Virus record (IMG/VR): IMGVR_UViG_3300032116_000013
Span: 1 to 64,000 of that record
Direction: 5' to 3' (one strand)
DNA: 64,000 bases
From: a virus
Shown piece after piece: positions 4,762 through 61,411 of this stretch (within the stretch, counting starts at the first letter, position 1; each line of letters opens with the position of its first letter). The position numbers and the translations under genes are program-made. Below the pieces are notes generated by a model. It was not told where the DNA came from. It saw nothing but the letters and a program-made list of their open reading frames with translations, and ran no database searches.

Positions 4762-4769
4762 TATAAATA
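4762..4769 (+). promoter_or_regulatory. T4-type late promoter for hsp20
   Basis: exact TATAAATA immediately after dut stop. Confidence 0.8.
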
Positions 4770-4773
4770 GAAG

Positions 4774-4824
4774 TGGAATGCCCGATTGGGGTTCCATAAC
4801 TATAAACTTGCTTATTTAAGGAGT
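4774..4824 (+). promoter_or_regulatory. hsp20 leader: two hairpins, the second sequestering the SD
   Basis: TGGAAT-G-CCC/GGG-GTTCCA (4774-4796); ACTT-G-CTT/AAGGAGT (4806-4824). Confidence 0.5.
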
Positions 4825-4831
4825 AAACAAA

Positions 4832-5296
4832 ATGACAAATCTAAACGCACTATCATCTGTAAATTATGAGCGTTATCTTCCATCCCTTCTCGGATTCGAA
4901 AGCGCATTCGCCGCACTCGATAACGCCTCTCATCTACTAACGTCTGGCGCTTCTGCTTTTCCACCTGTGAACGTCGTCAAGAAAGACGAATATAATTTTG
5001 TGGTTGAACTTGCAGTTGCTGGATACAAACTAGATGAAATTGACATTACTGCAGAAAAGAACTCACTCAAAGTGTCTGGTAAGAAAACAGAAACCGATGA
5101 TCGTCAATATCTTGTAAAGGGTATTGCTGGTCGTTCATTCTCACGCCAGTTTGTTCTTTCTGATACAGTAGTCGTTCGTGGTGCTGAACTTGCTGATGGC
5201 ATTCTTTCTATTCAATTAGAGAACGTCATTCCTGAAGAACAGAAACCTCGTAAGATTTCAATTCAAAAGCCTGCGCTAATTACAGCAAAGGAATAA
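4832..5296 (+). CDS. hsp20: small heat shock protein Hsp20
   Basis: FPPVNVVK...ELAVAGY...KGIAGRSFSRQF...ADGILSIQLE alpha-crystallin domain. Confidence 0.95.
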   Translation: MTNLNALSSVNYERYLPSLLGFESAFAALDNASHLLTSGASAFPPVNVVKKDEYNFVVELAVAGYKLDEIDITAEKNSLKVSGKKTETDDRQYLVKGIAGRSFSRQFVLSDTVVVRGAELADGILSIQLENVIPEEQKPRKISIQKPALITAKE

Positions 5297-56805: not shown

Positions 56806-58182
56806 ATGAATGAAGCAATTACACAATTAAACACAGACTCTATCCCCCAAACAATTAATCCGAACTTACTAGATGAAATGAATTGGGGTCCTAATGAACC
56901 AAATTTTGTAAATCTACTGAAGTCTGAGATTTTAATTGAAAAAATATATGAGAAATATTTTGAGGTTAGAGAAGGTGATACAGTAGTAGATGTTGGCGCC
57001 AATGTTGGCGCATTTGCAGCCTCTATTCTACACAAAAAACCTAAACATGTTTATTGCGTAGAGCCATCTAATGTCTTGGTAAAGTGCATACAAGAAAATG
57101 TTCTGAAATACTCAGAAAAGAATCCAGTTCCAGTTACAATTGTAAACGCTGCTATTTCTAATGAGAATAAACTCGCAACTGAAATCCCAGATAATGACGG
57201 AGTTTTTGTATATTATAATGAAGGTAATTTATACAATAAAATAACTTTCAAAGAACTATTATCTGTAACAAATATCAAAAAGATAGATTTCTTAAAATTC
57301 GACTGTGAGGGCGGCGAATACGACATCTTTACTAAAGAAAATTATGATTTTATTTCTAACAACGTAAAGCATATGGTCGGTGAGTGGCATATCAATGACC
57401 ATAAAAACGCTGTGGAAAGGTTTATAGAATTTAGAGATTTGTATTTAAAAAATCATAAGAATTTTAAAGTCTTGGAAAGAGACGGTAAGGATGTAACTTT
57501 TGAGATTTTTGATAACAATTTTTTATACAGATTCCAGGAATGGTATCGAGAAACTCAACACGGACAATTTTTTATCTATATGAACAACGACAAACCAGAA
57601 GAAGCATTTCTAATTAATAAAAACTCTAACTCTAAAATTTGGGTTGTAGAAGATTTTTATGTGAATCCATTCATGGTAAGAGACTTTGCTTTAAAGCAGC
57701 AGTACATGGAAGGTGGATTCGGTAGAGGATTCATAGGTAAGAGAACATATCTACAGTTTCTATTCCCAGGTCTGAAAGAGCGTTTCGAAGAAATTATGGG
57801 AGTTAAGATTACTAGATGGGAAGATCATGGAATGAATGGCAGATTCCAGTTGTCTTATGCTGGAGAGCCATTAGTATATCACTGCGACGAACAGAGATGG
57901 GCTGCTATGCTGTTTTTGACTCCAGATGCTCCATTTGAAGCAGGAACAACAATGCACGCGCACAAGAAAACTAGAATGCGCCACAAAGATCACCCTGAAG
58001 TTTATTCTGTATTCACAGGGCATACAACTCTAGATAAAACACCATACGAAGAAGTTGATGTTATCGGGAATGTCTTTAATAGATTAGTTATATTTGACGC
58101 TGGAAACATACACTCTGCTTCTCAGTATTTCGGATACAATAATGATAACTGCAGATTGTGGCAAATGTTTTTCTTCGACTAA
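56806..58182 (+). CDS. FkbM methyltransferase fused to 2OG-Fe(II)-oxygenase-like domain
   Basis: DVGANVGAF, EPS, KFDCEGGE; C-terminal VEDFY.NP...HCD...NVFNRLVIFD...HSA. Confidence 0.8.
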   Translation: MNEAITQLNTDSIPQTINPNLLDEMNWGPNEPNFVNLLKSEILIEKIYEKYFEVREGDTVVDVGANVGAFAASILHKKPKHVYCVEPSNVLVKCIQENVLKYSEKNPVPVTIVNAAISNENKLATEIPDNDGVFVYYNEGNLYNKITFKELLSVTNIKKIDFLKFDCEGGEYDIFTKENYDFISNNVKHMVGEWHINDHKNAVERFIEFRDLYLKNHKNFKVLERDGKDVTFEIFDNNFLYRFQEWYRETQHGQFFIYMNNDKPEEAFLINKNSNSKIWVVEDFYVNPFMVRDFALKQQYMEGGFGRGFIGKRTYLQFLFPGLKERFEEIMGVKITRWEDHGMNGRFQLSYAGEPLVYHCDEQRWAAMLFLTPDAPFEAGTTMHAHKKTRMRHKDHPEVYSVFTGHTTLDKTPYEEVDVIGNVFNRLVIFDAGNIHSASQYFGYNNDNCRLWQMFFFD

Positions 58183-58221: not shown

Positions 58222-58383
58222 ATGAAAAATCCATTTCGTGTTATCAAATCAAAAATTTTAAAACTGAAAACTCTGTTCACATACTTCTCAATAGTAAAAG
58301 AACAGAAAGGGTTCACTGCAGCCGTAAAATTTATTCCTAAAGCATACAGAAGAATAAACAGAAAAAATACCTATATAAAATAG
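58222..58383 (+). CDS. small basic hypothetical protein
   Basis: 53 aa MKNPFRVIKSKILKLK...; follows late promoter; weak SD. Confidence 0.4.
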   Translation: MKNPFRVIKSKILKLKTLFTYFSIVKEQKGFTAAVKFIPKAYRRINRKNTYIK

Positions 58384-58532
58384 ATGTCTGCCGTGGTGCG
58401 CACGGAGTGGCTGAGAGGAAGCTGGAGGGGCACAATAATAACCCTGCATATCTAAGGCAATTTCCGCCTCAGTGGTAAGGAGTCTGATACTGGCTCACTG
58501 CGGCACCCCGAGAGGACGAGCCTCTACATCTA
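58381..58532 (+). ncRNA. candidate ~150-nt multi-stem structured RNA
   Basis: closing stem TAGATGT/ACATCTA, 10-bp stem 58389-98/58496-505, further nested stems; GC-rich island. Confidence 0.6.
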
Positions 58533-58550
58533 TTGTATGGAGATATTTTT

Positions 58551-58892
58551 ATGTCAACTCTACCGAATGATGACTATGATTTCGGATTCAGTTTTGCTGA
58601 TGAAGAAACACTGCCATCTGCACCAGTTAAGAATAACAGCAATGATGAAATTGCTGTGCTCCAGGCTAAAATTGACTCTCTATTAGACTCGCAAGAAAAA
58701 GTTATTCAGTCAGCCATGAGTGCTGCTATAGAAGAAAAATATAAGTCTAAACTGCGAGAAGTAGAAGGTTTAATTATGCCGCTACTTTTAAATCTAAAAA
58801 AGAATCCAGACAAAGCGTATATAAATTGGCCAAATAGAGTGCCAGTAATTGATAAGCAAATAGAAAAAATTACTGCAGTAACAAGGAGTTGA
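58551..58892 (+). CDS. conserved T4-like hypothetical protein
   Basis: DYDFGF...PLLLNLKKNPDKAYINWPNR. Confidence 0.75.
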   Translation: MSTLPNDDYDFGFSFADEETLPSAPVKNNSNDEIAVLQAKIDSLLDSQEKVIQSAMSAAIEEKYKSKLREVEGLIMPLLLNLKKNPDKAYINWPNRVPVIDKQIEKITAVTRS

Positions 58893-58894
58893 GT

Positions 58895-59110
58895 ATGCCA
58901 GATCTAAAACTAACATGTGATAATTGCGGTTCTATGTTCGTGTTGTCTTATGACAACGACGAAGTTAGTTATTCGCCTAGCCATTGCCCATTCTGCGGCG
59001 ATTTCTATGATAATGAGAATGAAGAATTGGATTTTAATGATGATGGTGAATATGATGACGACATTCTTGAAGATCCTTTAGATGATGAAGACGATTTACG
59101 TCGTCATTAA
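58895..59110 (+). CDS. zinc-ribbon protein with acidic tail
   Basis: CDNC...CPFCG. Confidence 0.75.
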   Translation: MPDLKLTCDNCGSMFVLSYDNDEVSYSPSHCPFCGDFYDNENEELDFNDDGEYDDDILEDPLDDEDDLRRH

Positions 59111-59134
59111 CATTAAAAATACAGGAGTTATACT

Positions 59135-59845
59135 ATGAGTGGTTCAGCATTTTTTGATTGGGGGTGGATGCATATCAATGATGTGACTCTAATCACAAAA
59201 GAAATTTTTGTGGATAGGATTTATGAGAGATATAGAGAAGTTAAAGAAAATGATATTGTTATGGATATTGGTGCAAACGTCGGTGCATTTACGGCTTCTA
59301 TCTTAAAAAAGAAACCTAAAAGAATTTTTGCAATTGAACCTTCTAATACTCTAATTAATTCTCTTTGGACTAACACCCGATCAGAATATGTAACCTACAT
59401 AAATGCTGCTATAGAAGATGAAAAAAGAGAAAATGTTGATTCAACTGGAAGAGATACATTTGTTTATAATAACAATGGAAATTATTATAATGCAACAACT
59501 TTTAAGTCTATAATTGATGCGCATGATATCAAAACCATAGACTTTATGAAGGTTGACTGCGAAGGTGGAGAATATTCAGTCTTTAATGAAGAAAACAGAG
59601 AATTTATTTTAAACAATGTTAAATACATTGCTGGAGAATGGCATTTTGCTCCGAGCATACCTCAATTTGCACAAAAATTTAGATTGTTCAGAGACTTGTA
59701 TCTTGCAAATCACAAAAATTTCCACATATTCAATAATTCTAATATAGAAGTAACCGAGCATATTTTTAATGAATATTTTATGGATCTTTACGATTCGCAA
59801 CTTAAAGAAGACGCGCAACTAATGGTATACATTATTAACGAATAA
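59135..59845 (+). CDS. FkbM-family methyltransferase (paralog of 56806 N-terminus)
   Basis: DIGANVGAF, EPSN, KVDCEGGEY, GEWH. Confidence 0.85.
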   Translation: MSGSAFFDWGWMHINDVTLITKEIFVDRIYERYREVKENDIVMDIGANVGAFTASILKKKPKRIFAIEPSNTLINSLWTNTRSEYVTYINAAIEDEKRENVDSTGRDTFVYNNNGNYYNATTFKSIIDAHDIKTIDFMKVDCEGGEYSVFNEENREFILNNVKYIAGEWHFAPSIPQFAQKFRLFRDLYLANHKNFHIFNNSNIEVTEHIFNEYFMDLYDSQLKEDAQLMVYIINE

Positions 59846-60402
59846 TGATTTACGTTGGCATAGACTACAGTTTAACTTCGCCTTGCGTTTGTATCTCCAG
59901 AGACAAAACATTCTCAAATAGTTTCTTCTACTTTCTGAATGATCGTAAAACAGTTCTAGGAAAATTTCACAATATTCTTGGCGAACAACACGAAGAATAC
60001 CTAACGGACCAGGAGCGATATGAAAATATTGCTTCCTGGGTTCTAGGAATTCTTGCCGATTTTAAGAAAGAAGAAGTGATGGTCTTGATTGAAGATTATT
60101 CTTTTGGTTCCAAAGGCAGAGTTTTCAACCTTGCCGAAAATTGTGGAATTCTAAAGTACATGCTTTACAAGCAAGGATATAAATTCTTTACAGTTGCACC
60201 AACAGTTATCAAGAAGTATGCAACTGGCAAGGGTAATGCTACGAAAGAAAAAATGTATGATGCGTTTTTAAACGATACTTTTGTAGATTTACATAGTATA
60301 ATAAGTCCTACGACAAAACTGGGCTCACCGACAACTGACATCGTTGACGCTTGGTACATTGCAAGATATATGATAGACAAGACGGAAAAAGAAAAAGTAT
60401 AA
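59845..60402 (+). CDS. RuvC-like nuclease
   Basis: GIDYSLTSP, IEDYSF, IKKYATGKGNA, DIVDA. Confidence 0.85.
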   Translation: MIYVGIDYSLTSPCVCISRDKTFSNSFFYFLNDRKTVLGKFHNILGEQHEEYLTDQERYENIASWVLGILADFKKEEVMVLIEDYSFGSKGRVFNLAENCGILKYMLYKQGYKFFTVAPTVIKKYATGKGNATKEKMYDAFLNDTFVDLHSIISPTTKLGSPTTDIVDAWYIARYMIDKTEKEKV

Positions 60403-60424: not shown

Positions 60425-60805
60425 ATGACCGAAAAGGAAATAAACGAAATAGATGGCGCTTTATGGGGACTTACACTTTCCCCTGATGGACAAGAAATTG
60501 AGTGTGACACTACAGTATACAAGTTTAACGACAAAGAAACTCCAATGAATGAGGATATTGGTTCACACAAATATAATATTTTCACGTTCAAGCCTAATGA
60601 GCCAGCAAACACTGCAGAGTTTATGAAGGCTCATATTGGCGATGTGCGTAGATTTATTGACAATTATGCGAAAGCAGGGTATAATGGTCTTATGGTAAAG
60701 GAAGGTTGTATACCAAAAAAGACAATCAAAGACATGATTAAAGTTACTTGTAAGAATTTTGATATTCCACAAAAAACATTGAAACCAATTTTAGCGCAGG
60801 TGTGA
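60425..60805 (+). CDS. hypothetical protein
   Basis: 126 aa, GAGGAG SD. Confidence 0.7.
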   Translation: MTEKEINEIDGALWGLTLSPDGQEIECDTTVYKFNDKETPMNEDIGSHKYNIFTFKPNEPANTAEFMKAHIGDVRRFIDNYAKAGYNGLMVKEGCIPKKTIKDMIKVTCKNFDIPQKTLKPILAQV

Positions 60806-60810
60806 TACTT

Positions 60811-61071
60811 ATGACTATGTTTACTCGTGATGGTTTAGTTGATATGCTCAAGAACAACGTCGTGGTTGTTACGTTCACCAAGGTCAATGGTGAAGAGCGA
60901 GTGATGACTTGCACACTTCAAGCAAGTCACATTCCAAATGCTCCGACGCAAAAGGGTGAACTTGTGGTTGAAAAGAAAAGCAATAGCAATACTGTTTCAG
61001 CATGGGATGTAAATGCGAATGGCTGGCGTTCTTTCCGAGTGGAAAACGTCAAGTCAATTTCAATGGGATGA
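60811..61071 (+). CDS. WYL-like SH3-fold protein (DUF2693-like)
   Basis: VTFTKVNGEERVMTCTL...WDV...GWRSFR. Confidence 0.8.
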   Translation: MTMFTRDGLVDMLKNNVVVVTFTKVNGEERVMTCTLQASHIPNAPTQKGELVVEKKSNSNTVSAWDVNANGWRSFRVENVKSISMG

Positions 61072-61088: not shown

Positions 61089-61186
61089 CAGCCGCACAAC
61101 CTTTCGGTGTAGTGTTTGTCGCACAGCGATGGCTGCTTTTGTAAAAGAGGAATCTAGGACGCATTGCGCAGTGCGTGACGATAGAT
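61089..61186 (+). ncRNA. candidate structured RNA/leader
   Basis: three-way junction closed by CAGCC/GGCTG, plus ATCTA/TAGAT and ACGCATT/AGTGCGT stems. Confidence 0.45.
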
Positions 61187-61398: not shown

Positions 61399-61411
61399 TA
61401 TCTTTTCTCTA

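Follow-up and report, generated by a model that had tools for sequence, protein, structure and literature searches.

The window analyzed in this study is a 64,000-nt stretch from the start of the IMG/VR virus record IMGVR_UViG_3300032116_000013, which is 197 kb long, and it contains a GC-rich intergenic island that an initial annotation had described as a structured phage ncRNA of unknown class. This locus raises the questions of whether the island specifies a genuine RNA and what such an RNA would do for the phage. The record encodes T4-type replication genes (a gp43-like polymerase, a gp41-like helicase, a primase, and RNR), and its nearest isolates are cyanomyoviruses, with a polymerase identity of only approximately 51%. 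The sequence of the island, its extent (58381-58532), and its end 18 nt before the next ATG (58551) were as annotated; its GC content is 49-52% versus approximately 27-36% in the flanks.

Conservation and fold of the element

The element was delimited to positions 58383-58530 of the + strand (approximately 150 nt), with a terminal helix, P1, that can be extended to 58381 and 58532. This helix forms the base of a junction that branches into P2, P3 (a long arm), P4, and P5 (Table 1). Folding of the single sequence yielded a minimum free energy of -54.9 kcal/mol on the + strand (z = -1.31), and 23 of 200 shuffled sequences were as stable; the opposite strand yielded z = -1.46. Because single-sequence folding performed no better than chance, the support for the fold is comparative and comes from homologues.

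Table 1. Layout of the structured element and its immediate surroundings (window coordinates)
Feature	Position	Strand	Remarks
TATA-rich box CTATATAAAATA	58371-58382	+	abuts P1; candidate T4-type late promoter (putative function)
P1 5' strand, GAUGU	58383-58387	+	partner 58526-58530; extendable to 58381
J1/2, part of invariant GUCUG	58388-58390	+	conservation of at least 97% over 71 distinct sequences
P2 hairpin, CCGUG, loop GUGCG, CACGG	58391-58405	+	99.7% paired; central pairs GC/CG/AU/UA; loop UGCG invariant
J2/3, AGUG	58406-58409	+	AG conserved family-wide
P3 arm	58410-58473	+	58410-58415 with 58468-58473; 58417-58424 with 58458-58465; covariation
Conserved CUGGA in P3 arm	58422-58426	+	
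P3b, A-rich loop	58427-58430 with 58442-58445	+	covariation
Conserved P3 bulge, ..AUCUAAGG	58446-58457	+	
J3/4, GGUA of GUGGUAAG	58474-58477	+	invariant in T4-like group; ACACAG in non-T4 group
P4 hairpin, AGGAGUC, loop UGAUACU, GGCUC-A-CU	58478-58499	+	double changes in 6/7 pairs; 96.3% of cells paired
J4/5, CGG-N4/5-CCG, here GCGGCACCCCG	58500-58510	+	highly conserved; CGCGGCCUCCCG in non-T4 group
P5 hairpin, AGAGG, loop ACGAG, CCUCU	58511-58525	+	4/6 pairs covary
P1 3' strand, ACAUC	58526-58530	+	extendable to 58532
Shine-Dalgarno GGAG (58539-58542) and ATG (58551) of first gene	58539-58553	+	
113-aa gene, N-terminal DYDFGFSF motif	58551-58892	+	first gene behind element
Zn-ribbon (71 aa), FkbM-type methyltransferase, RuvC-like resolvase	58895-60402	+	rest of syntenic block

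The homologue search recommended by the initial annotation was conducted. Among 80 loci collected as relatives of the downstream gene, a single contig (listed as both L018 and L019) carried a homologue, and its pairwise alignment with the window copy revealed compensatory changes in P1, P2, P3, P3b, and P4. Pattern scans on invariant stretches, the covariance models R1 and R2, and close relatives of the 113-aa protein provided further copies. In total, at least 78 copies were found, at least 71 of them distinct (alignment A7, 78/71), and the record's own 197-kb genome contained exactly one.

In A7, standard pairs filled 93.7% of the paired cells, compared with 78.6% in shuffled alignments and 31-43% when the partners were slid. 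Cells changed on both sides numbered 429 against an expectation of 127, and the covariation score was 0.404 compared with 0.145 in the control, a value that none of 500 shuffles reached. Every helix exhibited several pair types, including three positions of P1 (AU:37/GC:32, AU:57/GC:11, and CG:37/UA:31) and compensated variants of P5 such as AUUGG/CCAAU, GCAGG/CCUGC, and CAAGG/CCUUG. In J4/5, a mini-helix of three pairs was predicted without covariation. When copies from phages other than the T4-like ones were analyzed alone, the eight column pairs with the highest mutual information were all predicted base pairs; the signal is therefore not merely a split between the T4-like and non-T4 groups. 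G-U pairs were frequent (GU:42, GU:34, and UG:23 at three pairs), and since the opposite strand would have A-C mismatches at these sites, the + strand is the folded one. On these comparative grounds, the element is a member of a real, widespread phage RNA family with five covarying helices, and the annotation as a structured ncRNA is sustained by abundant compensatory changes. A protein-coding reading of the element was rejected, with the internal ATG lost in L082 and length differences that are not multiples of three.

The covariation also distinguished among the helices initially proposed. Of the seven stems read from the single sequence, six recurred as covarying helices: TAGATGT/ACATCTA as P1, CTGAG/CTCAG and GGAAG/TTTCC as P3, AGGG/CCCT as P3b, GAGTC/GGCTC as P4, and AGAGG/CCTCT as P5. 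The seventh, the 10-bp stem TGCCGTGGTG/CACTGCGGCA, is part of the single-sequence minimum-energy fold but is unconserved, being broken in L082 and most other copies. The CCGTG/CACGG hairpin, proposed as an alternative, proved to be the genuine P2, and its central positions show four Watson-Crick pair types; the hairpin thus stands and its alternative status does not. The suggested GGGG/CCCC pseudoknot was not upheld: the G run has a local partner, CCCU, with which it covaries, and the CCCC run varies without compensation (AACCA in L101, CUCC in L093, and GCCUCCC in the non-T4 group). A further candidate pseudoknot, between GGUGC in the P2 loop and GCACC, was likewise rejected, since G and A interchange freely in the loop and the other group has GCC in place of the partner. 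A mutual-information scan revealed no convincing pairs beyond these helices, apart from a possible one-column register shift in P3.

Copies ranged from 148 to 215 nt. Insertions and deletions were confined to helix tips, the 215-nt forms carrying extra hairpins, and the distal P3 arm was variable: the L152 type carries an insertion there, and L148 is truncated. Approximately 45-50 unpaired nucleotides in junctions and loops were nearly invariant: GUCUG in J1/2, RUGCG in the P2 loop, and AG in J2/3; CUGRA and the bulge AUCUAAGGCA in P3; and, toward the 3' end, GUGGUAAG or ACACAG in J3/4, CGCGGCCUCCCG or CUGCGGCACCCCG in J4/5, and AC preceding the 3' strand of P1.

Genomic settings of the copies

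The T4-like copies (the window, L082, L083, L093, L097, L101, L103, L112, L113-L122, and L125/L126) head a block consisting of an optional 2OG-Fe(II) oxygenase, the 113-aa gene, the Zn-ribbon gene, an optional FkbM methyltransferase, and the RuvC-like resolvase. The gene order of the window recurs in L082, L083, L097, L112, and L113-L122. The gene directly behind these copies varies among the 113-aa gene, the 2OG oxygenase, and the Zn-ribbon gene, and none of the copies is near terminase genes. The 113-aa protein matched no Pfam or PHROG family, and its homologues are all labeled hypothetical, save for two evidently spurious labels. In the window, FkbM-type methyltransferase paralogues flank the element (56806-58182 and 59135-59845, both +); the upstream paralogue is fused to a DUF6445/2OG-like C-terminal domain (phrog_1644), and a WavE-like gene precedes the pair.

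The element is optional among close relatives. The empty site in L123 reads ...CTATATAAAAAATAG/TTCTTTTATAGG..., and L125 carries the element at precisely the point of the slash; the empty L002 and the filled L083 exhibited the same clean presence and absence, and three complete related genomes of 162-170 kb contained no copy. The copies in L085 and L098 are approximately 89% identical to that in the window, yet are situated among an endolysin, a nuclease, the element, and a lipoprotein gene in that order, whereas the syntenic copy in L082 is only 66% identical. This contrast between sequence identity and context suggests that the RNA has been exchanged horizontally between phages.

Outside the T4-like phages, the element occurs in contigs of 52-58% GC. 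In approximately 50 of 58 non-T4 copies among the matches listed, it is followed by an ORF of 150-190 aa at the terS position and then by terL. This ORF is annotated as a small terminase in one group and in the GenBank phage DSL-LC05; the terminase large subunit belongs to phrog_2 or phrog_38, and the operon continues from terS and terL to the portal gene and onward. In L195, a Dps-like gene comes first, followed by terL. The nearest GenBank records are freshwater phages of approximately 38 kb that themselves lack the element, and one, deposited as Podoviridae sp., has a P22-like portal. Across the family, the first genes behind the conserved core thus comprise the 113-aa, 2OG oxygenase, Zn-ribbon, lipoprotein, terS, and Dps-like genes. 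The alignments and loci compared here establish the family, its fold, the folded strand, the position of the element, and its portability.

Two side observations concern the upstream regions of the non-T4 copies. Contigs L205, L136, L182, L206, L252, L227, L232, and L231 end approximately 1-525 nt upstream of the element, and these ends could be the termini of the genomes or could reflect breaks in the assembly at a hypervariable region that directly precedes the packaging operon. In L226, L222, L213, and similar loci, conserved repeats surround a putative promoter 15-60 nt upstream of the element, comprising the inverted repeat GCTAATAAA-N16-TTTATTAGC and the direct repeat CCTTTACTTRC; they are candidate operators for a late-gene regulator.

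An element placed directly before terS, a common location of cos and pac sites, could also be a DNA-level site, either a cos/pac or protein-binding site or a small mobile DNA with terminal inverted repeats. P1 does resemble terminal inverted repeats of 5-7 bp, the insertion and deletion boundaries are clean, and several contigs end within approximately 30-500 nt upstream of the element. However, the strand-specific G-U pairs and the compensation in five internal helices indicate selection on a folded + strand RNA, no target-site duplication of the MITE kind was found in the comparison of filled L125 with empty L123, and the T4-like copies are far from terminase genes. We thus consider a DNA-level site very improbable.

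In L140 and L151, the element is located after lysis genes and faces convergent genes, with no downstream gene on the same strand, and in L151 it is followed by a hairpin and a U tail. These two loci bear on an alternative in which the element would be a stand-alone, stable trans-acting RNA or a ribozyme, that is, a small-RNA "moron" with its own promoter and with paired ends that define a discrete molecule; it could serve as a decoy or anti-defense RNA, a packaging-associated RNA, or a self-cleaving or processing RNA. P1 joins both ends and a promoter-like box abuts it, the sporadic distribution and the apparent horizontal exchange are consistent with such a molecule, the complexity of the fold equals that of ribozymes, and the invariant UGCG of the P2 loop, self-complementary on inspection, could mediate loop-loop dimers. 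Most copies, however, lack a terminator and have the next start codon 3-45 nt away, and a discrete 3' end would thus need processing. The element is present in one copy per genome, and no ribozyme family of Rfam matched, either in positions 58250-58650 (E<=10) or in eight loci searched at E<=5. Taken jointly, the forms of this trans-acting alternative appear unlikely.

Promoter, terminator, and translation signals

T4-type late promoters have a TATAAATA box approximately 6 nt upstream of the transcript start, and the initial annotation had placed the element downstream of a late promoter. The window box TATATAAA matches TATAAATA at six of eight positions; the box is an exact TATAAATA in L098 and reads AATAAATA in L112. 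In the empty-site relatives L123 and L002, the same box directly precedes the gene at late-promoter distance. The exact TATAAATA motif was not enriched in the window, and in the T4-like copies the TATA box is only 2-6 nt from P1, so that a T4-type start would fall at or inside P1. A TATA-rich box does abut P1, and a late promoter of the T4 type is plausible there, with the ATAAATA boxes elsewhere in the genome (see below) in its favor and the motif frequency and the spacing against it. In nearly all non-T4 copies, a TAnnnT hexamer (for example TATGAT, TATCTT, TAACAT, or TATTCT) ends 10-12 nt before GUCUG, a spacing that predicts a sigma-70-type start 1-2 nt before P1.

Several other sequences in the record resemble coding or promoter features. 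A basic ORF of 53 aa (58222-58383, +) ends exactly at the TAG abutting P1, and the relative L113 has a called gene of equal size at the corresponding position; should this ORF be genuine, part of the "TATA box" would be coding. Downstream of the COG2908 RNA described below, the CTATATAA box at 61409 precedes the next gene by 29 nt. Between approximately 79 and 190 kb of the same genome, ATAAATA boxes occur 30-40 nt before gene starts (79863, 82548, 84963, 88798, 156745, 174772, 179167, and 181826) and fit T4/cyanophage-type late promoters. In addition, intergenic regions across the whole 197-kb genome show a 5-11-fold enrichment of 8-mers derived from a motif resembling CGTAAGTTATTGATTCTATTAG; this motif is a candidate operator repeat or a candidate promoter of early or middle genes.

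The predicted transcript start at P1 would leave the 5' end of the mRNA base-paired, and the element might then be a mere 5'-terminal stabilizer or insulator that shields the late mRNA from 5'-end-dependent decay. The optional presence of the element among close relatives fits such a modulatory rather than essential role. Nevertheless, a single hairpin would be enough for that job, and the approximately 45-50 unpaired nucleotides that remain invariant across phages whose copies are 50-60% identical point to a tertiary fold or a binding site. A role confined to stabilization is, in our estimation, quite improbable.

Terminators were rare both before and after the element. A terminator-like hairpin was located behind it in 6 of 63 copies, and in four of these within approximately 16 nt. 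A clear terminator-like feature accompanied the family in one subgroup only (L263, L247, L255, and L227), where the hairpin UUGGGCGUAGCCCAA followed by UUUGCUCUU lies approximately 15 nt behind the element and before terS.

A hairpin and U-run between the element and terS in these four loci, and the similar arrangement in L151, would suit a promoter-proximal processive antiterminator of the HK022 put, EAR, or Tn916 canT type, in which the leader would modify the host RNA polymerase to read through the late or packaging operon. The put RNA consists of two hairpins, and the five-helix junction of 150-215 nt is unlike it. Cis-acting antiterminator RNAs are an established mechanism class (HK022 putL/putR, Bacillus subtilis EAR, and Tn916 canT; PMC11658703), and by analogy the element resembles them in being promoter-proximal, in its apparent action on the operon that it heads, in having no fixed distance to the ORF, and in being portable. 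It is located directly behind a predicted promoter at the head of long operons, its variable distance to the first ORF needs no platform linked to a Shine-Dalgarno sequence, and movement between myovirus-like and podovirus-like phages would be expected of an RNA acting on the host polymerase. The size and fold of the element differ from those of the known antiterminators, put and canT being set apart by description; moreover, terminator-like hairpins follow few copies only, L140 and L151 have no downstream operon, and the blocks headed by the T4-like copies are short. These differences lead us to doubt an antitermination role, which we consider improbable.

The translation signals were similarly heterogeneous. 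The start codon lies 3-45 nt behind P1 in the non-T4 copies, which mostly lack a Shine-Dalgarno sequence. We found no conserved sequestration of the Shine-Dalgarno sequence, and the accessibility of this sequence and of the AUG was inconsistent across members.

Candidate function and relation to known RNAs

Complex, widely conserved folds with many invariant unpaired nucleotides are mostly riboswitches, ribozymes, or binders of core cellular complexes. We tentatively favor the possibility that the element is a portable, cis-acting sensor of the riboswitch type in the 5' leader, acting on translation of the first gene. The RNA would be transcribed from the abutting promoter, with its 5' end at or a few nucleotides from P1, and would act in cis on the operon that it heads, which would be the terS/terL packaging operon in most other phages found and the 113-aa/Zn-ribbon/RuvC-like block in the present one. 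The core, once folded, would recognize either a universal component of the host or a small molecule and, through P1 and P5 at 3-45 nt from the start codon, would set translation of the first gene. We infer the transcription start, the cis action, the sensing, and the translational output in this scheme.

Two generic riboswitch features were found in the family, namely a covariation-supported fold with invariant junction nucleotides and a location in the 5' UTR in nearly all copies (L140 and L151 excepted). Because the core stays invariant while the first gene varies, the RNA probably does not have the downstream protein as its partner; a universal component of the host or a small molecule is more likely, and a riboswitch-type cis sensor is therefore favored. 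Varied first genes behind one conserved core would, by analogy, be expected of aptamer domains, and the complexity of the fold and its invariant junction nucleotides exceed the need of a stabilizing hairpin. The short distance from P1 to the AUG makes steric control possible. Against the sensor reading, no conserved expression platform was found in Shine-Dalgarno accessibility or terminators, L140 and L151 lack a downstream gene on the same strand, the associated genes are packaging or late genes with no metabolic theme that hints at a ligand, and the box of the T4-like copies is so near P1 that a T4-type start would fall inside the helix.

In a broader form, the family could represent a regulatory RNA class, carried by phages, that is new. 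It would be a riboswitch responding to an infection signal or to a metabolite of the host, or else an RNA that reprograms the ribosome or the RNA polymerase of the host; in either case it would control when the DNA-packaging or late operon is expressed and would pass horizontally between small podovirus-like phages and T4-like myoviruses. This proposal is a possibility that we hold with some doubt. The family comprises at least 71 distinct sequences, is not in Rfam, and ties two very different phage types together; in most of the copies found, the element is located where the phage decides to begin making its packaging machinery. Ligand sensing or polymerase modification, if true, would constitute a new control point of the phage late program as well as a compact, portable regulatory part, and a trans-acting RNA, if true, would be a new kind of RNA "moron."

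The Rfam comparison proposed in the initial annotation matched no family to any member at the element. With Rfam 15, nothing was detected on the element in positions 58250-58650 at E<=10, fifteen divergent loci yielded no match at the gathering thresholds, and eight loci yielded none on the element at E<=5. The loose resemblance to cobalamin riboswitches initially noted was not substantiated: length and multi-helix junction are similar, but RF00174, RF01482, and RF01689 did not match even at E<=10, and the family consensus has no B12-box-like core. BLAST searches of GenBank phages with the window, L151, and L152 versions returned no match, and a pattern scan of GTDB species genomes returned three chance matches, none confirmed by a covariance model. 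Covariance-model searches found no copy in DSL-LC05 and the Manatee Spring podovirus, the closest GenBank relatives of the associated terminase. This RNA was described nowhere in the literature that we searched, and the staphylococcal cabRNA, which is transcribed from within terminase genes, was rejected as its identity (PMC10686824).

Among small phage RNAs, rnaC and rnaD (species 1 and 2) of T4 are also structured and occur in T4-type phages. They are sited in a tRNA cluster, however, and our reading of the T4 sequence revealed a tRNA-like T arm in rnaC and a terminal CCA in rnaD; model R2 had no match in this region (NC_000866, 68000-75000, E<=0.001). The phi29 pRNA is approximately 120-170 nt in length, pairs its two ends with each other in a single helix, and has its own promoter. 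The element resembles it in size, in its paired ends, in its apparent own promoter, and in its linkage to packaging ATPase genes in most phages found. No homology was detected, the intermolecular loop pairs that form the pRNA ring are unsupported here, and the T4-like copies are far from terminase; we thus treat the likeness as resemblance only.

Close parallels exist among phage orphan RNA motifs. The manA and wcaG motifs are orphan riboswitch candidates or cis-regulatory RNAs in cyanophages (Weinberg 2010, PMC2864571), and together with COG2908 they share with the element a multi-helix junction, invariant junction nucleotides, a 5' UTR position directly before a gene, and a sporadic distribution in uncultivated aquatic phages. 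Unlike these motifs, the element matches no Rfam 15 model and no expression platform was found for it; moreover, manA and wcaG are associated with sugar or photosynthesis genes, whereas the present family is associated with packaging and late operons. The family is new in being absent from Rfam 15, although its kind, a conserved structured phage leader, is familiar; its link with packaging genes and its occurrence in different types of phage are notable. Fremin et al. (2023) cataloged 10,006 unnamed candidate structured RNAs from IMG/VR that covary and are located within 25 nt upstream of phage genes (PMC10690425), a collection drawn from the data source used here and made up of comparable objects. 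The text of that paper discusses leaders of GP20 and GP32, not of terS. The present family may be among the 10,006 candidates.

At the gathering thresholds, Rfam 15 identified only COG2908 and ROSE_3 in the window, both away from the element. A full-length COG2908 RNA (RF02939, 72.7 bits compared with a gathering threshold of 58.7) is located at 61090-61134 (+), approximately 2.5 kb downstream of the element; it follows a WYL_2-like gene (60802-61071) and overlaps a terminator-like hairpin at 61116-61132. At 4762-4837 (+), an exact TATAAATA (4762-4769) is followed by a borderline match to the ROSE_3 thermometer (44.2 bits compared with 43); this match could be spurious, or it could mark a further structured leader that follows a late promoter.
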